Source: Candidatus Altimarinota bacterium | GTDB lineage: Bacteria > Patescibacteriota > Gracilibacteria > Absconditabacterales > Absconditicoccaceae | DNA length: 64,000 nt | Direction of reading: 5' to 3' | Assembly: GCA_027046965.1 (NCBI GenBank) | Contig: JALTWR010000002.1 | Coordinates: 9,537 to 73,536 of the forward strand | Shown: piece by piece, positions 3,903 to 35,000 of the stretch | How the letters are laid out: each line of letters opens with the position of its first letter | Position numbering within the stretch: the first letter of the stretch is position 1 | Made by a program: the position numbers and the translations under genes | Notes under the pieces: generated by a model | Databases searched by the model: none | Seen by the model: only the letters and a program-made list of their open reading frames with translations | Told to the model about the DNA's origin: nothing

Positions 3903-6359
3903 TTAGTTTTCTCATCTTAGCTTAAATCCTTCTGCCCTTAGCCTATCTATCACCTGCCCAAAAAAATCTTCAAAAAATCCCTTTTTCATATCTTTAGGAG
4001 CTACTATTTTTAGGGTTAGCGTTATACTCTTTTTACCCTCAGGAACTCCTCTACCTACATAAATATCTTTAAGATAAATTTGCTGAATAGGTTCCATAGA
4101 TTGCAACAAATCTATTAACTTCTTCTCATCCTCTGTAAGATCAATTACAATACTCAAATCCTTGTAAAATATATTATCAGATAATGTAAGGATTTGCGGA
4201 TGTGCAGGAGTATTTAATATATCTACTATTTTTTGTATGTCAAGTTCAACAATACCTACTTGAGCTCAGTCCTCAAATCCTAGTTTAGAAAGGGTTATTG
4301 GAGACAATGTACCTAAAAATCCTATTTCAATGCCATTAACTGTGATCATACCAAATTGCTTAATATGAAAAAAGTTACTAAAGATATCACTTTTTTTGTA
4401 TCACACATCAGCATTATTAACCTCTAGCCTAGTTAGAATTCAGTCAATAAGCGATTTAAGATGCAAAATAGGGCTATCCTTAAAAGTTTCGCTATCTTTT
4501 TGATACCACAAATAAGCTATTTTACGATATTCTTTTTGATCTTGCCAAGCTCTACCAATATCCAAAATTCTAATTTGCTCAAAATATCTAAAGTTTTTTT
4601 GTAGTACCTCAATTAGTGATAAAAACAAAAATGGCCTTAAATATGTAGAAGTTGGATCCAAAGAATTTATTATCTTAATTACTTCTTCCAAATCTATATT
4701 AGCTATTTCCAACAGTTTTTTGGAAACCCAGGGATAAGTTTCAACCTGATCAAAATGAAAATCTCTAACGCCGATATCTACCAGCTCTCTTTCAAGCTCA
4801 AATACTTTATCAATAGGATGATATTTTATTTGCTGGGTAGGAAGATGGTTTGAAATCTTATCATATCACCATATTCTCCCTATCTCTTCTGCTAAATCAG
4901 GCAAGATATTAATATCCTTAAGAGATCTAAACACTGGTACTTTAACTGTACTCCCTTGTATTTCAAATCCTAGTGCTTCCAAAATTAAATCCATTTTGGG
5001 ATAAGGTATTCCTTCAGATACTCCAAAAAGGAGTTTGTTTATCTCTTCCCTAGAATAATCTACTACTTTTTCAGGATTAAAACCTTCTAGATGCCAGCTA
5101 ATACCATTTAATTCATAATTACCTAAATCTTTTTTATAAGTTTTTAATAAGTCCAAAAATAAAATTAAAGCATAAGCTGAAAAGTTTGGATTAGGGGATT
5201 TTTCAAACCTAACCTGTGCATCTGTCCTAAGCCCCAGTCTCACTCAAGTTCTTCTAATTTTAACAGGATCAAAATGGGCAATCTCCACTGCTATGTTTTT
5301 TGTCTGAGAAGTAATTTGGGAGGATTCTCCTCATATAATTCCGGCTAATGCTAAAATCTTTTTTTCATCTGCAATAACAATATCCTCCGAAGATAAAGTA
5401 TGTTTTTCTCCAGTAAGATCTACAAATTCTTCTCCATCTTTAGCATTTCTTACTATAACCTTTCCTTCAATTTTATCAGCATCAAAAAAATGCACCGGCT
5501 GAGAAGTCAAAAACATAAATAAATTTGAAAAGTCTACCCAATTATTTTTGGGAATAGCTTTAAGATCGTACAAAGATAATCTAGTCAAAAAGGACGACTT
5601 TTTTATGGTAACATCCTTGATATGAACCAAAATATAAGTTTTGGCATCTGGAGTTTTTACATCCACTCCAATAGGTCAACCAATAGAACTATGTAATAAT
5701 TCTATCAGATTAGTATCTCTAAATTGCGCAAAAATACCTGGTAATCCATTGAATTTAATTTTAGTAGAATCTAGCAAACGATATATTGCGTTTAACTCTA
5801 CTCCTATTCCTAGGTGTCCAAAAAGGTCTGGCCTATGTGTTAAGGTTTTGTTATCCACCTCAAATACAGTAGATTCTAACCAAGGATATTTTTTAACCAA
5901 AGGAACTCATATATCAGACTCATCAATATCGTCAAAATCCTCATCTAAAATCCAAATCCATTTTTGTTCTTCGTCTTCTGGGATACCTAACTCTGATTTT
6001 GAACAAATCATTCAATTAGAGCTGATCCCTCTCATAGGCTTTGATTGAATGGTGATATCTATCGCAGGCAAAAAAGTACCATCTACAGCCACGGGAACAA
6101 ATGCTCATTCTCTAAGGTTAGTAGCACCTGTAATTATTTGTAAACTTTCTCTCCCTATATTTATTTCACACACCCAAAGTTTATCTGCATTTGGATGCTT
6201 GGTTATTTTAATTACTTTGCCTATTATTACACCAGTAGGAATCTGACGAGTCTCATATCACTCTATCTCACAGCTTTTCAAAGTAAGAAGATCTTTAATA
6301 TTTTGAGGAGAATCATCCACACTTATAAATTTTTTTAAAAGTCAACTAGAAAAATACAT
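3903..6359 (-). CDS. pheT: Phenylalanine--tRNA ligase beta subunit
   Basis: Five same-frame track ORFs (3912..5900) plus an N-terminal tRNA-binding domain: MYFSSGLLKKF...KVIKITKHPNADKLWVCEINIG. B3_4/B5-like segments are present (MRLGLRTDAQVRFEKS) and the C-terminus is FDX-ACB-like. The track stop at 3912-3914 is TGA; the real TAA is at 3903-3905. Confidence 0.9.
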
Positions 6360-6401
6360 CAGCCATATTCAATTTATTCAAGTAAAAAACTAGATGTATC
6401 A

Positions 6402-6429
6402 GTTATAACAAAAGATTATTTTTTTTCAA
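6402..6429 (-). promoter_or_regulatory. Putative sigma-70 promoter for pheT
   Basis: On the minus strand: TTGAAA (6424-6429), a 16-nt spacer, then TATAAC (6402-6407). This sits about 43 nt upstream of the pheT ATG and downstream of the hairpin plus U-tract that ends the GC-rich RNA. Confidence 0.3.
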
Positions 6430-6431
6430 CT

Positions 6432-6680
6432 AAAAGGAAACCCCACCCGGGGTACCGAGCGGGGGTGATCCGTCGGCACCCAGGGCGGGGTGTTCCCCTT
6501 AATTATGAAAGTGACGTTCGTATTTTATCCACCTTCATAGTTAAGAAGATTACCCTGGGTGCCGACGGCTTGTCCAAGCGGCTCCTGAGGTCAGGATCAC
6601 CTACTTGGCAAGGAGGAATACCTCCATTTACGCCATCGGGAGGCTACCGCGTCCTGGTGGACCATCCCTTTAGCGTTGAT
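6432..6680 (-). ncRNA. Structured GC-rich non-coding RNA, class unresolved (strand tentative)
   Basis: A GC-rich island in an AT-rich genome.
- Perfect 16-bp helix: 6470-6485 CCGTCGGCACCCAGGG pairs with 6553-6568 CCCTGGGTGCCGACGG.
- A nested 16-bp helix, 6498-6513 with 6530-6545, has one wobble and one mismatch and a 16-nt loop.
- Side hairpins: GGGGTGTTCCCC (6487-6498) and GGAGGAATACCTCC (6612-6625).
- On the minus strand the element ends in a GC stem followed by TTTCCTTTT. Confidence 0.55.
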
Positions 6681-6802
6681 TATATATTAATCACCTTTTA
6701 AAAATAAACAAAAGCTCAACTTAACTTTTTAGATATTAAATTTATGATATTTGACTATTGCCACAGCTTTATATAAAATATGCCCTAAATGCTACCTATA
6801 AG

Positions 6803-8563: not shown

Positions 8564-11500
8564 TTAAGTAGCTAAAGACTGTTCTCACTGAGATGGATAA
8601 TTAGCTCTATTTCTATTGTTACCTTGTTTCAATTTCTCTAATCTCTGGCTTATCCATTCATCATCGGTTCTTATTTCAATTCACAAAGCATCTTTTAAGA
8701 AATCAGCAATATTTCCCAACTTATCTCTCTTTAATCTATCCCTTAACAATCTTTTAAAAGCCTCTATAGCATCTTTAACCTCTCAAGGCAGTTTGTTATT
8801 ATATCTCCTGAGGAATACCCCCAAAGTAACTTTATCAAGAAGAGCGTCGCATTCTCAATTAAAAGTGCCGTTTTTTTCTAAACAATAATAAATTACAGCT
8901 CCTAGATCTTCTAGCCCATCAGATGTATATACCCTTTCTCCAAACCACAGAGCATACTTTTGTAATATAAACTTCATTGTCTCTTTTTCTTCTGTAGCTG
9001 GATCATTAACACCTTCAAATCATTTTTGCACACTCTTCCAAATATAGTGAGCTTGTCTTTCTTTATTAGGTGCAAAAGCACCTGTATGAGGATTTATAGC
9101 TAATCACCGCTGAACCATAACATAAGGTCCCTGAGCCCAAACATTCTCCAAAAATGGCGATTCTGGATCCATCAGATTTTCAAATATACTCTTTCATATT
9201 TCTGCCTGATTAGCACGCTGCAAGTAAGCCTCTATAGCACTCAATTCTTCTTCCTCCAGTGGCGAAAGCTCCCCTCTTTGTTTTCTTTCCTGATACCTAT
9301 ACCTTATTTTCAACAATGAACTTTCTTCATCCAAATTTGACAAAAGCAACACCCTTTTTAGCTGTTTCCCATATTCAAACCACCGATCTCGGTATTTACC
9401 TAGGATTTTATTGAAGTGTTTCGAAAAATTTTGAGGACTAATATTCTCCGGACTCCAATCAGGAGAAGCAAAACTACTAAAAGGCGGGATTCATATATTC
9501 TTAGCTATAGCATCCAAAAGCCTGACAAACCTAACACTACCCTCATAATCTATAATAAATCAATGAGCAGGAATACCAAAAGTCCTTCATAACTTCACAT
9601 AGTCGTCCAAAATATCACGAGAAAAATGACCAGACACCGGTAGACCAACTACCAAAGGAGCCAAATATGCACCTAAAGAGATATCTCCCTCTTCTTCTAT
9701 AGTTGCCTTGCTTAATAATGCCTTAAGTCCTCACAAAGCCTCCGCAACCTTCAAATCTCCAATATTTCATCTTACATCTTCAAATATTCCGGCAAAGGAT
9801 ACTGAAGAAATATTTTTGGAATATTCATCTACACTAGAGGAACTACGAGAAGCACCAAATGTCTTGATAAAGGCTTTAGGGAATTTACTACCAAATACAT
9901 TTTTAGATTTTTTATCCTTTTTAAGATTTTCAAAAATATAAACTGATTCCAAATCCCCTAAATCCTCAATTAATTTACGATTATCAGGATTGTTAGCTAA
10001 TTGTGACAGTTGCGAGTTATATTTTGCCTTAAAAGCCTCCCAATGTTTTTCTCATAATATTAATCTTACCCACACACCTTCTGAAGCATATTTGGCAAGT
10101 GCTTTTGGATACAAACTACCACCTCATCAACTTTCTGCTACAAACATTAAATATCCGGCTGCTTTCAGTTTTTCTCTGAGCGATTTTATTTCCCCTTTGG
10201 GATACTTCAAAAATAAATCTCTCTCTACTTTTCTTAGCGCTTCTCAACTGTCAACTCCTCAATCACGAGATAATAAATCTTTGTATTTGTTTATAACCCC
10301 CCAAATCTTGGAATCATACTCAGTAAAAGCATCAGCAAGTACATCTTGGAATGCTGAGCCCAAGGCTTTACCCATAAACTTAGAAAAAGCATTCTCTAAA
10401 GCCAAATAATGAAATTTTGTAGCATCAAATTCTTCCCTTTCTTTGATTTGAGCCATCCAGGCATCCCAAATGCTTTTCAATCATCCACCTATAGCTCATA
10501 TTGAAAACCACATTATTCCTCTCCCAGGCTTATGTATGCCTTGAGGAGTTTCTATTTTTTGAAATAACTCAAACTGTTCATATTGAGATTGAGTGTATCC
10601 TTCAAAACCGTTGTATCCTACCCACAATAAAAAGGAATCATAACTCATACTAATAGTAGTTGCCTTTTGTCCCCCAGCTGGAGTTATATGAACAAAATTA
10701 TTATCAAAGGAAACCTCAAATAATTGATAAAAGTCTTTGCCTCATTTTTTAGTAGGTCTTCCTACATATTTTACCTCTTCTCCTTGAAACTCTCCGCTCT
10801 TAAATGTTACCCTTCCTCTTTCCCATTTTGTCATTTTTTTCCACCAATCAGAAATCTTTTCACCTATTTTTTTATAATCATTTTTAACCTCCCACTCACT
10901 TAAATATCTACCACTTTCAACAAAATTGGGTAACTTTCTCATCTTAAATATACTAGAACCCATACTATCTTTGATATTATTAAGTCACAGAAATAATCAT
11001 CTAGAATCCACCACTACTTCTCTAGAAGCTCCATTCACAGTATCAGTAAAAGGAGTAATAATAACCCTATAAGAATTATCATCTATTTTGACAATATTAA
11101 TTTTAATCCAATCGAAAAAGCCTGCCTTTTCAAACAGAGAATTTCAACTTCATTTTGGTCTTCAAGCATAGTGAAACAATACAATCCCCTCTCAGTTTTC
11201 TAAATCTTCAAGTCTAGCATGAATCTCTCCAGAAAATTCAGATAAAATCCTTTCTGCTCTTTCTAAATAATTAGTGTCACTTTCCATATCCTGACTCTCA
11301 GTTTCATTATCTCATTGAGAAGGTTGTTGAGAATCCTCAGAAAATGGTTGCTCTTCCTCTTTACCATCTCCTCACTGAGATATATGCCCGTCTTGGGTGT
11401 TCAAAAGGAACTCCCCTAGCAAGTCTGTGCCCCTTACCCTACTTAAAAGATCTTGTATATCATTTATTGATATATTAGACTTAAAGCTAAGAAAAATAGC

Positions 11501-28006: not shown

Positions 28007-30946
28007 TTACCAGCTTTGCTTTTGAACCTCTTCCAAAAGATCTAGCACTCCAGGAGGCGGTAACAGCCAGAGTCTTGGATTAGTTATGACTTTCAAAGAT
28101 GCACCTTTTACTATTAACTCATAAACATTAAATGTGGAATTCCATATATTTCCCAAGATAGACCTACCGTTTTCTGTAAGAGTAACAATGCCATTTCATA
28201 TTAGGATACCTTTCACTTCTAGATCTCATCTTTTGGACCAACTCTTGTTTAAGTCATCATTGCGAATTCTAGTTTTTTGGAAGCCATTCTTTGCAATATA
28301 TATACCTTCCACTTGTTGCAATACATCTGTATTTAATGGGTCAAAAACAATGGTTCAATTTACCAACCACATACTGGAACCCTCAATGTCTCATTGAATC
28401 TTTAAATTTCCATCAATGATAAAGGTTGTAGGTTGGCCTAAACTAACATCTCCAAAGACCACATCCTCTGCAGTATAATATATTTCTGCTCATCTAGCTT
28501 TTTGCCACCTTACTCCTCATAGTGAAATATCCGATCAAATAAATATATACTTAGTTTTCAGTTTTCATATAGATTCTTCGATCTTATTTGCATCATAATT
28601 TGCAACGGTTATCAACTCTATATTGTCTTTTTCTTCTGTAGATAGCATAGAAGTTCAATCTATTTTTTTGAAATCATCGAATTTTTCATTTTCCGTAGTA
28701 GAAACAAAGCTACCAAGTTGCATCATATAAGGCCTTGTTACTACAAAATTCATTAAACATTCCCTTCCATAATCATTAGAAGGAGCCCAGTTAGCTGAAG
28801 CAGTTGCCCACTCATAATATTCATTACCATCTTCATCGGTATACTTTTGACATACCTTGGTTCATTTAATATCTTCAAATTTAATCTTATATTCACCATA
28901 TGTACTTAAACCATTTAATTTAACTCCAGCCAGTCCATCTTTATATATCCAAAACAAAGAGTTCTCCAATCAGTAATCATTTAAAAAGTCTTTAAGTAAG
29001 TTAGCACTAGACAGTCTAGTCATATCAGCATTAAAGCAGGACTCTTCCAGTCTCTTAACAATCCCTCCATTACCATCAACTATATCAAAATAACATTTTA
29101 GACTCCTTCTTTCCCACTTACCTAAATTATCCTCATTACATCCTCCATCTGCTATATTATTTCAGAGAGTATTTTTGTCTACCTTCCACCAAAAGAACAG
29201 ATATTCATTTGACATAATTGATGGAGGATCCACCCATGCACATAATGGAGCTCTTTCACTTACAAGTTTACAATCTGAAGTACACCATATAGCATTCTTA
29301 GTAGGTTCACCGTTCTCATCAACTTCTGACGGATCACATTCCTCACCATTTCCGGCTTGTACTATACCATCTCCACAATAGCCTCATCAGCCTCAACCTC
29401 ATCAACCTCAGCCTCTCCTAACTAATTCCACCCTACATTGAGTAGGAGCGTCTGTATACTTCAAATCAGCACTAGCATTAATACTACACCATATATAATC
29501 AGGAAGATCTGTATTATAACTACCTGATACAACATCCTCGCTTGTTCAATTTACAATATTTTCAGCCAATATCCTTTTGTCTGTACCAGCACTACTATCA
29601 GCTTCATAAACTCTAACAACACTAAGAGTCCCCTGTCATTTACATTCAAAATATACTGTCTGATCTCATTCGAGTTCTAATCTAGACACTTGCTGTAAGT
29701 TATCTTTTGATACCCCTACCTTAAGATATTCACAACTAGCAGGCTCCCCGCCTCATCAGCCTCAACCACCACCTTCACTCCTAGAAGCACTACATGATGT
29801 AGCACTACCACCTATCTCACATTGCCAACTTACAGATTGACCAGGCTGAGGAAATGGCACAGGATAAGGATTAGGATCACCTACTTCACAAAAATAACCT
29901 GTTCCTGTTTGAGGCCAGTCACTAACATCTGAACCAAAGTTTTGTCAGTTAGCAGGTCCACATCTTGGCTGATCTCCAGGATTAGCTTGATCATATACTG
30001 TTACAGAAGCCGTACAAGTTGAAGTAGGTCTTACAACTCAGTCGGCTATTGGAGAGATATTGTTTTGAACTGTTGCTTTTAATATGAAATTTCCTGTTTG
30101 AGAATAAGTATGAGTCAGAGGGAAAGATGGGTTATCAACTATATTGGAATCTCACAGATCCACCATCACATATTTTGCCCAATCTTGAGTAGTAGCGTTT
30201 ATTGTAGTCGTCAAAGGAACGGTTCCTGAAGGTGGATTGGGAGATAATGTACAAGTCGGTGTTTCAAGCTGACATGTAGAGCTACAACCATCTCAATTTA
30301 CATTATTTCAATCATCACATTGCTCTCAGTTATCGGCATCAACATTTCAGTCTCCACAAAAATGAATGTATATATTAAAACATTCGTTTTGAGAATATTG
30401 TATATCACCCCATATTCTTTTAGTTTGATCCTCTAATTGATACTCTTTATAGCTACCATTTTGAAATCTGTAATAATAATAATTACTTGTTTGTCACTGC
30501 TGTTTACCTTTTTCTCTCTTGTAAGCAATCTTATATACTATTTGTGCATCAGGTAATGAAGCATTCACTCCTTTTTGCTTATAAAGTGTACATCCCTCAC
30601 TTCATACTACTACCACATCATTTATGCTACCTACTTCCGTTTTAGAGGGGACCACATTAGAAACCCTATACCAGTAGCCACACCCCATAATAGAATCTGT
30701 ACCATTTTCCCAAATTGTAACACTTGTTTCCTGGTTTCTTATAAAAAGCGTGTCAGAAACATTGGAAATCAAATCTATAGGATAAATAGTCTTAGTAGTA
30801 CTATCAATATAATAATGAGCATCTACATTTGCTTCTGTACAATTTTGCTCAAAATCTCATACGTTTTGGGTATATGTAGTTTGAATAGCAAAGGTGAAAG
30901 AAATCCAAAAAGGAGTTAAAAGAAGTAATTTATAAAGCTTACTCAT
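28007..30946 (-). CDS. Secreted protein (979 aa) with two Myxococcus-type cysteine-rich repeats, a PKD-like module and poly-Gly linkers
   Basis: The track shows no standard-code minus ORF of 60 aa or more here, yet the code-25 frame is open over 980 codons.
- Signal peptide: MSKLYKLLLLTPFWISFTFAIQ.
- Cys-rich repeats: [33 protein letters not shown] and YCGDGIVQAGNGEECDP...CTSDCKL.
- C-terminus: ...PPPGVLDLLEEVQKQSW, stop TAA at 28007-09. Confidence 0.8.
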
Positions 30947-32040: not shown

Positions 32041-32066
32041 ATCACATAATTATCTATAATAAATCG

Positions 32067-35000
32067 TTATTCATCTATTGGAGAACCCGTAGGCCTAGGT
32101 GGAGGAGAAGGAGCGGCTGTAGGTTTAGTAGTAGGTACGTCTGGAGAAGGAGGAGTAGGTGTTGGAGAAGGGGTCGGAGGAAGTGTTGGTCACTCAGTAG
32201 GCTTTGTAGTAGGCTGTTCTTTCCTTCTTTCATGTGGTTTACGCTCGTAATCCACACCTCATATAGCATAAAGCCAATCCATTCATTGATCGGGAACTAC
32301 ATCTATCGTATTAAGTTCACCTCCCTGAATTTGGTCTATAGCAACTTCCACTTTCCCTATACTTTTAACTGTAGATGGAGTTTTGGATAGTTCTCCTTTA
32401 AAATATACCCATCATCTGGCGCTTTGTCCATCTGAAGCAGCTGTCAAAGTAGATTCTTGCAATAGTCTATATCATCTGGTGGCAATATTTATCTCAGCAT
32501 CTCTTTTTCCTATCGTATTTTCCTTCTTGGCAATCACTACCTTCTCCACACGGTAACCAACCGTAGGATTAATACACTCACCATAAAGATAATATACTGG
32601 TTTGCCATATATTCTTAATTTTACCTCTCATCTAACTAACTCTTTCCCCATAAATAACTCAAGAATTTCCTCCTTAGATGAAGTGTTCACGTCCATATAT
32701 TGGTCAATTCAATAGTTTTTTAATACAGATTTTAGCAAGTCTTGAGGCATTTTTTCTAGTATTTTTCTAGACAATACCAAATCATTCAACTCAACAACCC
32801 TTCATTCCAAAACATCACCAAATCCATGAGGCAAAAGAGAAAAACTCTCTTCCTTTGATCTTTTCGTATATACCAAAGAAGCTACTATACTTTCATCGTA
32901 TGCTCTATTAGATGAAGATACATCTATCTTATCAGGATTAATAGAGCTGACAATATTGCTAAGTCTATTTGCTATATCTTCTCCCCAATTTACCTTTATA
33001 TGGTTAACAAATCCTTCCTTTTTAATTTCTAGCATCTCCCTACCTATACTTTCCTTAGTTTTTTGATCTATATGTTTTCATTCTAAATCTTCTCCAAGCA
33101 AATATTCATCGGTCAATGTCCCTTTAACAAATAATGCTAATGCATAAACTAGAGCTTCTCTATCTAAAGATCTTATCCTTTGCATGATATTATCTGTAGA
33201 GCTGATTCATAATTCTTTAGCTTTGGGACTATCTAACATTTTTTGAAGATTATCAACTGCAGCTGACCAATTCTGCTCTTTGTAAGCATTAATAAAATTA
33301 TAGTATTCATCAAACATATTTAATTTCGCCAAAGCTAACTTGTGCTGATCCACAAATTTTGAAATGTCCTTAACTTTGTCTAAAGACTCAATTTTGGATG
33401 GAGCTAGTATTTCGTATTTCCTCTCAAAGTCAGACATAACTTCCCCTGAAGCAGTTTGCTCCAGATTAACATAAACTAGCTGCAATGGATAGCTTCACAC
33501 CTCATAAGTTATCTTAATTCAATCTGGTCAATTAAAAACATTGATATCTCATCTATGAGATGGAATGACCAACTTACCATCAACTATTTTCAAATTTTCA
33601 TCTAAATCTGCAGACTTAACATCTATTCATAAGACTTTTGAAAGACTAGTTAAATCGATAACAACTCCATCAGATGTTATCTCTATCCCATTTTTTAGTT
33701 CTTCTGGGAGCTGCAAACTGTCAGCCTCATCTTGTGATTTATATATTTCAAATCAACTATTTTGAGTCTTTGAGGTGTCGCTCTGATAATCAAATTCAAT
33801 AATATCTTTGGTGCTTCCTTCCTCTACTGTATATGATATTGTGCCATCTTTTTTAAAGATAACAACCCTACTTCATAACGGAACTTCCTCACCTTTGATC
33901 TCAATAGTTTTATTTTTCTCATCAACTACCATATGCTCATTCAAAAATTCAACAGCTTCAGAAGGAAGATTTTCAAAGTTCCTAAATAATTTTTCTCCTC
34001 CATAAGACACCTTCTCAGGAGTATAAGAAAATATTTCAATATGAGTTTTACCATCAGCGGAATCATCAATCACAAGTTCTTTTATATTTTTCAATATTGG
34101 ATCTACCACTAATTGAATGTTTTTATTTTTTAATCCTCTTCTATACAATTTAACTTTTTCTGTATTTCCAAGTTCTTTTCCATTTTCTATAACTTTAACA
34201 AAAGGTGCTGTGATAAACAGTGATCAATCTTTACCAACCATAAACAAACCATACTTACCATTTTCTGGGCTATAAGATCTTTCACCCTTAAACAAACTCT
34301 CCAAAAACAATTTAGCCTCATCAGAAATATTTATTTGCGACAAAATTGTATCTTTAATCTCAATCGTTTCTCCTTGCTTAACTTCCACGCTCAACTTCTC
34401 TTCTCAAATCTTACCATACTTACCGTCAAAATTCAACAATTCCTTAAGCTTTTGAGGAGAAACTCACAATTCAGTTGCTGCATCTTTTAAATTTTTATCT
34501 ACACCAGCTTTAAGCAATCATGGCATCCATTTTATGTCTGTGGTTCAATAGTTTCATCTAATAGTTATTATTTTATCACCTACTTTGACAAACAAGGCAT
34601 TTTTACCAACCTCGGCGTTTCACACCTGCTTATACTCAAAAACTCCTCCAATTGTTTTCATCTCATCAAAAACTTTTTTTAAATCTTCAGGTTTTGATAC
34701 TATCCCCAAGTCTATCATATATCCAACCACCTCTTTTACTAGTTTGTCTGCATCTATGTTGTATCTTTCATTTTTATCAAAATCTAAATCATGCTCTTCC
34801 TCCCCCAAAAAATTCTTAACTCACCTAAGAGACAAAAATCTTTTTTTAAATTGTTGATACTCTCTAGTGCTCATAAGACTTTCCAAAGTCACTTTACTTG
34901 ATTCTGACAATACATCATTTAAGCTTTCTCATTTAACCCTCAAAGGTTTTACTATTTCTGCCTTCAAATTTGCCAACTCTTGTTGGATTTCTTCTGTGGA

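Follow-up and report, generated by a model that had tools for sequence, protein, structure and literature searches.

A conserved minus-strand RNA upstream of pheT in an Absconditabacteria genome and its family of attenuator-like RNAs

The 64,000-nt stretch of DNA analysed here (hereafter the window; positions 9,537 to 73,536 of contig JALTWR010000002.1, assembly GCA_027046965.1) comes from a Candidatus Altimarinota bacterium of the family Absconditicoccaceae, and carries a GC-rich non-coding island at 6432-6680 (GC about 0.5-0.55) upstream of pheT, the gene for the phenylalanyl-tRNA synthetase beta subunit. What does this island specify, and is it a free-standing RNA gene or the leader of the synthetase gene? 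A first-pass annotation had described it as a structured RNA of unresolved class, either a divergent housekeeping RNA or a lineage-specific one, and had favoured independence from pheT. To our knowledge, hardly any regulatory or non-coding RNA is known from the Candidate Phyla Radiation (CPR). Judged by its sequence signals and by comparison with related loci, the island is a real, strongly conserved RNA gene of about 245 nt, on the minus strand just upstream of pheT, and the RNA belongs to a small SR1/Absconditabacteria family that is not in Rfam 15 and is built like a transcription attenuator.

In 200-nt segments of 6400-6699 the GC content reaches 0.47-0.50, while the flanks have 0.25-0.38; the genome (855 kb, 95% complete) has a mean GC of 0.33. 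The island had been called the only strongly GC-rich one in the window; it is the sole non-coding one and the longest, but about 29727-29866 and 32058-32260 also have a GC of 0.5 or more, inside long open reading frames (ORFs). Measured against dinucleotide shuffles, the minus strand of the island folds at -135.9 kcal/mol (z = -9.4) and the plus strand at -125.1 kcal/mol (z = -7.6), and none of 200 shuffles was as good in either case. Folding beyond the shuffles and the covarying helices described below bear out the structured RNA. The 16-bp helix 6470-6485 / 6553-6568 is perfect, all of its pairs being Watson-Crick, and two smaller hairpins, GGGG-TGTT-CCCC at its side (6486-6497) and GGAGG-AATA-CCTCC (6612-6625), match their first description. 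The inner helix 6498-6513 / 6530-6545 is also present, but is not the perfect 16-bp duplex that had been claimed, since it consists of 14 Watson-Crick pairs, one wobble and one mismatch.

The RNA strand is the minus strand, as shown by 18 G-U pairs in the annotated family helices (A-C mismatches on the opposite strand), by the promoters and by the U-tracts. Upstream lies a promoter (6684-6711, minus strand) with a -35 hexamer TTGTTT at 6711-6706, a 16-nt spacer and a -10 hexamer TAATAT at 6689-6684, whose position suggests a transcription start near 6677. The RNA, about 245 nt, would thus extend from 6677 to the end of its U-tract at 6432. At the 3' end, the GC stem plus U-tract that had been noted on the minus strand was recovered by a terminator scan as a stem at 6464-6441 with 10 pairs (8 of them G-C), followed by TTTCCTTTT. 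This intrinsic terminator, CCCCGCUCGG-UACC-CCGGGUGGGG (6464-6441) plus UUUCCUUUU (6440-6432), has a stability of -18.5 kcal/mol, two of its G-U pairs are possible on the minus strand only, and it ends 70 nt before the start codon of pheT (6359).

Between these ends, all on the minus strand, the RNA is composed of a series of hairpins. In the minimum-free-energy fold, an extra 5' domain (6630-6676), seen only in pheT copies, holds a GUCC-ACCA-GGAC hairpin with its ACCA loop at 6658-6655. It is followed by hairpin P1 (6612-6625), GGAGG-UAUU-CCUCC, and UAUU/UAUC tetraloop hairpins of this kind recur across the family. The P2 domain (6570-6611) has the apical hairpin UCCUG-ACCU-CAGGA, with its loop at 6591-6588. 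P3 is a three-way hairpin (6470-6568) in which the outer 16-bp helix (6568-6553 / 6485-6470) encloses a long variable arm, P3a (6545-6498), and a small arm, P3b (6497-6486), GGGG-AACA-CCCC. A possible antiterminator, weak in the pheT copy, would pair CCGACGG of the P3 3' strand (6476-6470) with CCG-C-UCGG of the terminator 5' strand (6462-6455), spanning 6455-6476. Lastly, the promoter-like sequence reported in the first-pass annotation is present between the terminator and pheT (6402-6429, minus strand), with TTGAAA at 6429-6424, 16 nt, and TATAAC at 6407-6402. It could be either the own promoter of pheT or a constrained segment of a read-through leader. Promoters of the TTGAAA type also drive the RNAs of this family, which suggests that TTGAAA is the common -35 hexamer of these bacteria.

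Two related loci, L224 (PheT 98% identical) and L223 (about 80-81%), keep mscS, a 444-nt spacer and pheT, and demonstrate that the RNA is under purifying selection. A 98% relative is present in the Logan assembly of SRR13622958. Against L223 the whole RNA is 91.6% identical, with 97% from the RNA start up to P3a and 93% from the end of P3a to the U-tract, compared, at near-neutral sites, with 65% in the spacer upstream of the promoter and 56-63% at codon third positions of mscS and pheT. Identity is 90% over the 72 nt that follow the terminator. Both hexamers of the RNA promoter are kept in L223 and 9 of the 16 spacer bases differ, which is the mark of a functional promoter and puts the inferred start near 6677. 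The extra 5' domain differs from that of L223 by one base, and its hairpin has the same top as P2 in L129, a tyrS-linked member. In the lower stem of P2, a U-G pair has become C-G in L223 by a U-to-C change, and a C-A mismatch in P3a is mended in two ways, to U-A in L224 and to C-G in L223. The tip of P3a is the sole fast-evolving part of the RNA, and the terminator is identical in all three loci.

This comparison also bears on whether the island codes for protein, as a 78-aa plus-strand ORF (6465-6701), or is a palindromic or mobile element acting at the DNA level. The frame is open under genetic code 25 and the helices are long and nearly perfect, but L223 breaks the frame by a 1-nt indel and stop codons, and it is structure, not a frame, that the other family members have in common. 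An RNA is indicated by compensatory changes and by 18 G-U pairs that only one strand allows, as well as by the promoter and the U-tract. For a mobile element there are just two copies in the genome, too dissimilar for BLAST to connect. We consider coding or mobile origins highly improbable, and the RNA reading survives the check on the ORF that the first-pass annotation had proposed.

The second copy was found by scanning the genome for non-coding GC-rich islands. This paralogue (L100) lies at C11:2953-3232 on the minus strand, directly upstream of tyrS (C11:2881-1571), and shares its architecture with the pheT copy: GCUGG-UAUU-CCAGC, an ACCA-loop hairpin, a three-way hairpin and a terminator. 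When the 141 genomes of the order were searched by BLAST with the element, the sole hit was the element itself. The tyrS and pheT loci of relatives were collected, and covariance models were built from them. The first (R1), made from tyrS copies only, was too narrow and missed the pheT copy under study; the seed of the second (R2), made of sequences that had been excised, trimmed and padded with N, served only as a search device, and the R2 E-values are rough. R2 matched the window copy at 6604-6430 (minus strand) with 35.6 bits (E 2e-5). The family now comprises 11 distinct members and three near-identical copies. The highest R2 scores are those of L129 (112 bits), L128 (92 bits) and L228 (81 bits), all linked to tyrS, followed by L218 (63 bits; next to a convergent methylase gene), L227 (57 bits; before ftsW), L222 (47 bits; before a 225-aa ORF) and L219 (39 bits; facing a convergent gene). 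The two pheT copies, L223 and that of the window, score 38 and 36 bits, L225 and L229 (tyrS) 25-26 bits, and the C11 paralogue (tyrS) 24 bits.

From 5' to 3', the members share an order of sometimes an extra hairpin, P1 (UAUY loop), P2 (ACCN loop), a linker, P3, and a terminator with a UUUUCUUUU-like tract; their promoters read TTGAAA or TTGTTT, 16 nt, TAnnnT. P2 is a bulged hairpin whose ACCN tetraloop is the family signature, being ACCA in 8/11 members, ACCC in 1/11 and ACCU in the two pheT copies. The linker between P2 and P3 is short, CAACAA in the tyrS type, and P3 has a G-C-rich outer helix of 12-16 bp that closes a junction with the variable P3a and, in most members, P3b. The small P3 arm of the tyrS copies L100 and L225 is an 8-nt palindrome, changed from GGAAUUCC to GGUAUACC and kept though its 2-nt loop cannot form a hairpin; it may be an intermolecular or protein-binding site.

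Covariation, named in the first-pass annotation as a test, was scored on the R2 alignment of nine sequences, and the helices prove to be conserved and covarying. In this alignment 96.7% of the cells pair and 24 of the 31 pairs change on both sides, with a covariation score of 0.795 as against 0.219 for shuffled alignments (0/500 reach it) and at most 0.185 with slid partners; as the alignment was fitted to the model, the pairing and covariation figures are somewhat inflated. The P3 outer helix is 100% paired with 9 of 12 pairs compensated, and all four loop-proximal pairs of P2 covary across the family. Compensation in P3 can also be read from the raw sequences, for example in a G-C to A-U exchange between the C11 copy and L225, and in three double changes between L129 and L227.

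The family looks restricted in distribution. Over the 141 genomes of the order, R2 found members in three, and a fourth, weak match (G028) resembles a bare terminator; the strict filters of this search missed even the genome under study, so the spread is a lower bound. No element was found at about 28 other tyrS loci of Absconditabacteria, at 70 metagenome pheT loci or at the pheT of genome G278.

Could the RNA nevertheless be a known one? The Rfam check that had been proposed was carried out, and Rfam 15 gave no match in the whole window at gathering thresholds and noise only at 6300-6800 with E <= 10; ARAGORN found nothing in the window. A divergent housekeeping RNA had been proposed, with a large signal recognition particle (SRP) RNA of the Bacillus type as the best match in size. 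Size and GC richness do suit, and the genome is without a detectable SRP RNA. However, RNase P RNA (C9:13892-14211, 126 bits) and transfer-messenger RNA (tmRNA; C11:20178-20478, 88 bits) were located elsewhere in the genome, as was a 6S-like RNA at C6:43560-43703 (L099 221-364, plus strand), which matches RF00013 with 44.3 bits (E 9e-7), just below the 46.4-bit cut-off. This 6S-like RNA is compact. As first reported, the diagnostic motifs of RNase P RNA, tmRNA and SRP RNA are absent from the locus.

SRP RNA, small or large (RF00169 / RF01854), gave no match in the window or the genome, and was detected in just 3 of the 141 genomes of the order, each with an estimated contamination of about 5-6%. 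Among its protein partners, the Ffh M domain (PF02978) was not found in the genome, nor was an ORF with G.GKT and DT.GR GTPase motifs, and no SRP54-type GTPase (Ffh or FtsY; PF00448) exceeded the cut-off in 31 genomes of the class. According to the Vampirococcus genome paper, SRP subunits are missing there and in many CPR bacteria (PMC8080830). The lineage seems to have lost the SRP pathway as a whole, and with no SRP RNA, Ffh M domain or SRP54-type GTPase found, the SRP RNA reading falls away. A housekeeping RNA would also not be expected to have two paralogues per genome and to be missing from most relatives, and we regard a housekeeping function of any of these kinds as almost certainly wrong. 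What stands is the other option that had been offered, a lineage-specific RNA, in the form of an uncatalogued SR1/Absconditabacteria family. Common stretches with the rRNA operon were considered as copies of rRNA hairpins and rejected, since they are only 9-11-mers, the chance expectation.

If the RNA is of no known class, what could it do upstream of a synthetase gene? We tentatively favour an attenuator-type leader of pheT with three hairpins (anti-antiterminator, antiterminator and terminator) and an unnamed effector, and put the probability of this at roughly 45%. By default, P3 would form, the terminator would follow, and polymerases coming from the RNA promoter would stop. Read-through would need a factor acting in trans to occupy the 5' strand of P3 over the roughly 80 nt that are transcribed until its partner appears; the 3' strand, left free, would then pair with the 5' strand of the terminator, and transcription would run into pheT. 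As effector we would first suspect a protein, given that the invariant bases are those of hairpin loops, and after it a tRNA; invariant bases in tetraloops (UAU, ACC) point more to recognition by a protein than to a pocket for a small molecule. Here we infer both the regulation of termination and the nature of the effector.

Several features of the family are consistent with this attenuator. The terminator (6464-6432) lies directly upstream of the co-oriented pheT, and in every member the terminator 5'-strand segment is also able to pair with the 3' strand of P3. This alternative hairpin is at least as stable as the terminator in 7 of the 11 members, with a shuffle p <= 0.04 in four; the shuffle tests of seven lineages, roughly combined by Fisher's method, yield about 6e-4. 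One C/G exchange that distinguishes L128 from L129 is mirrored in each of the three strands, GAGCCAGGG / CCCUGGCUC / GCCAGGG against GAGGCAGGG / CCCUGCCUC / GGCAGGG. In four of the six independent contexts a gene of the same orientation (tyrS, pheT, ftsW or the 225-aa ORF) lies no more than about 110 nt away, and two of the six have aminoacyl-tRNA synthetase genes, both for aromatic amino acids; with an estimated chance of about 3% per site, two of six would have a probability of about 0.01.

Other observations weigh against it. The window-copy antiterminator has only -7.9 kcal/mol against the -18.5 kcal/mol of the terminator (shuffle p = 0.8), and that of L227 is similarly weak. P3 ranges from -41 to -62 kcal/mol across members, so stable that the antiterminator would lose unless the 5' strand of P3 is blocked, and no upstream sequence competing for that strand was found. 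No specifier codon, leader peptide or effector was identified; the short leader frames, read by eye, have no Phe codons, and no frame is common to the members that were read. The promoter-like TTGAAA-16-TATAAC after the terminator is 100% kept in L223, including 16/16 spacer bases, and TTGAA(A/T), 16-17 nt, TAnnnT also follows the U-tract in L128 and L227, as it does in the window copy. Lastly, no GC island lies upstream of pheT at the 70 metagenome loci (PheT at most 46% identical), nor such an element at the G278 pheT (56% identity over the N-terminal 213 aa). Given the weak antiterminator and the conserved promoter-like site 3' of the terminator, the window copy may be mostly a fixed terminating RNA.

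The same observations give weight to the alternative that had been preferred in the first-pass annotation, a stand-alone small RNA (sRNA), acting in trans or binding a protein and always terminated, with pheT transcribed from TTGAAA-16-TATAAC and the adjacency to pheT and tyrS reflecting conserved gene order only. An RNA of this kind would have its own promoter, with hexamers kept while the spacer diverged, and a strong terminator, and both are present; GC enrichment and near-perfect conservation are typical of stable RNAs. It would also explain why L218 and L219 are followed by convergent genes, and why the L227 element sits after tyrS and before ftsW rather than in front of tyrS, points that count against a leader, as do a P3 too stable for an ordinary switch and a window antiterminator at chance level. 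Against the sRNA stand the synthetase genes in two of six contexts, the alternative pairing, at least as stable as the terminator in 7 of 11 members and with covariation from L128 to L129, and the distance of only about 26 nt from the U-tract to the start codon in L222, which leaves little room for a promoter. Furthermore, the spacer of the post-terminator site is kept at 16/16, unlike that of the RNA promoter, which suggests constraint beyond promoter function. On balance a stand-alone sRNA is possible but doubtful. The evidence on an independent RNA gene is divided: the conserved post-terminator site and the two members facing convergent genes speak for it, the synthetase contexts and the antiterminator-like pairing of most members against it. 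The two readings are not fully exclusive, as a mostly terminating leader would release a stable small RNA.

A leader upstream of synthetase genes also raises the question of a highly derived T-box riboswitch, which would sense uncharged tRNA-Phe at pheT and tRNA-Tyr at the tyrS copies. The position upstream of pheT, and of tyrS for the paralogue and relatives, would fit, as would the terminator with its alternative hairpin, and T-box-like leaders occur elsewhere in the class before thrS, ileS, glyS and trpS. The T-box model (RF00230) scores in 29 of 151 genomes of the class (loci L108-L127) with 22-75 bits, significant though sub-threshold, and E down to 1e-16; it gave no match at E <= 0.01 in the genome under study and none in 15 sampled genomes of its own family. 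At the element itself, RF00230 matches neither 6300-6800 (E <= 10) nor the tyrS copies L100, L128 and L129 (E <= 5), and in these copies other Rfam families also gave nothing meaningful. A T-box-like string, AGGGAUGGUCCACCAGGACGCGG, does occur at 6666-6644, about 180 nt 5' of the terminator, with which it cannot compete. Each antiterminator hairpin is a plain stem that ends in a loop such as UCCCC, UCCCCCAUA or AUCACCC, with no UGGN bulge. No cognate codon stands at a conserved position, the C11 tyrS leader being without any UAC, and the UAU and UUC triplets of the loops are common to the Phe, Tyr and ftsW copies, with UAUY loops in orphan copies too. The location in front of a synthetase gene, with a terminator, holds for pheT and tyrS but not for the ftsW, unknown-ORF and convergent contexts, and the members before ftsW and the 225-aa ORF count against a T-box. 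By sequence, then, the RNA is not a recognisable T-box, and a derived one is improbable.

A more speculative variant of the attenuator keeps the link to aminoacylation. With its G-C stem, the ACC(N) tetraloop looks like a tRNA acceptor end (N73-C74-C75) in permuted form, a likeness that we treat as a lead and not as a result. The RNA would then be the lineage's own tRNA- or synthetase-sensing attenuator for aromatic synthetase genes, the P2 ACC(N) loop being a circularly permuted mimic of the acceptor end that is read by the synthetase, RNase P or another tRNA-end-binding protein, and its occupancy would decide whether P3 forms. This would be a new aminoacylation-linked control unrelated to T-boxes, and we consider it unlikely. 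Two other forms of mimicry were tried and rejected. In two genomes GGCAGG of the tyrS leaders agrees with the acceptor stem of tRNA-Tyr (GGGCAGG), but L128 has GCCAGGG and the match of the switching helix was judged to be at chance level, and as mimics of the anticodon the G-UAUY-C loops fail by occurring in the Phe, ftsW and orphan copies as well.

How does the proposed attenuator compare with known systems? In the PyrR-type pyr attenuators of Bacillus subtilis there are likewise three successive, mutually exclusive hairpins before the gene, the first of which decides whether the terminator forms, and here too loop bases are invariant, as protein recognition would predict. However, there is no similarity to PyrR leaders in sequence or in Rfam, and no PyrR-like partner is known; P3 is far stabler than the antiterminator, making termination the default, so that an effector would need to prevent P3 rather than stabilise it. 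T-box riboswitches (RF00230) are likewise structured leaders of about 250 nt with a terminator before synthetase genes, and are found in other families of the class, but here there is no covariance-model match, UGGN bulge or Stem I with a specifier loop, and the loop motifs are the same whatever gene lies downstream, non-synthetase genes included. The Escherichia coli pheST leader (the pheM leader-peptide attenuator) is likewise a terminator-based attenuator before a phenylalanyl-tRNA synthetase gene, whereas here the short leader frames lack Phe codons, no frame is common to members, and pheS is not adjacent. Orphan sRNAs of reduced genomes, such as the compact 6S RNA of Absconditabacteria, are likewise GC-rich in an AT-rich genome and extend from promoter to terminator, but the RNA described here is not a rod with a central bubble closed by its two ends, and the 6S-like RNA of the genome is at another locus. 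The closest counterparts are the protein-controlled three-hairpin attenuators (PyrR) in logic, and T-box leaders and the E. coli pheST leader in position, and the RNA is a member of none of these. The family is neither in Rfam 15 nor in the literature searched, and we rate it as new but of a known general kind. For CPR bacteria, text searches of the literature brought up nothing on riboswitches, T-boxes or structured RNAs.

The family adds an RNA with covariation, purifying selection and defined ends beside two synthetase genes, in a lineage that gave the Rfam T-box model no hits. Should the RNA be an attenuator, it would show control of synthetase genes in an ultra-reduced, recoded parasite (UGA = Gly) and point to an as yet uncharacterised RNA-binding effector; if it is a free sRNA, it would be among the very few candidate trans-acting RNAs of the group. 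Either way an Rfam covariance model is merited, and would better annotate these genomes.

The neighbouring genes are as first annotated once the genome is read with code 25, for which it has a tRNA-Gly with the anticodon UCA and ORFs that are open only with TGA as Gly. On the pheT side, the gene (6359-3903, minus strand) codes for 818 aa under this code, is on the same strand as the RNA, and products near-identical to the window PheT match the Pfam domains tRNA_bind, B3_4, tRNA_synthFbeta and FDX-ACB; pheS is not adjacent to it (3903-6359). At the opposite flank is an MscS-type gene (7723-6803, minus strand, code 25). The order of giant protein, two MscS-type genes, RNA, pheT and rpoD is kept in L223 and L224.

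The other non-coding GC islands of the genome (on C26, C28, C31, C19 and C21) gave no match to the new family. Two of them, G000:C26:18263-18556 (L103, 294 nt, between convergent genes) and G000:C31:1397-1566 (L106, 170 nt, upstream of mutL), have no Rfam match at E <= 0.1, and are possibly further RNAs.

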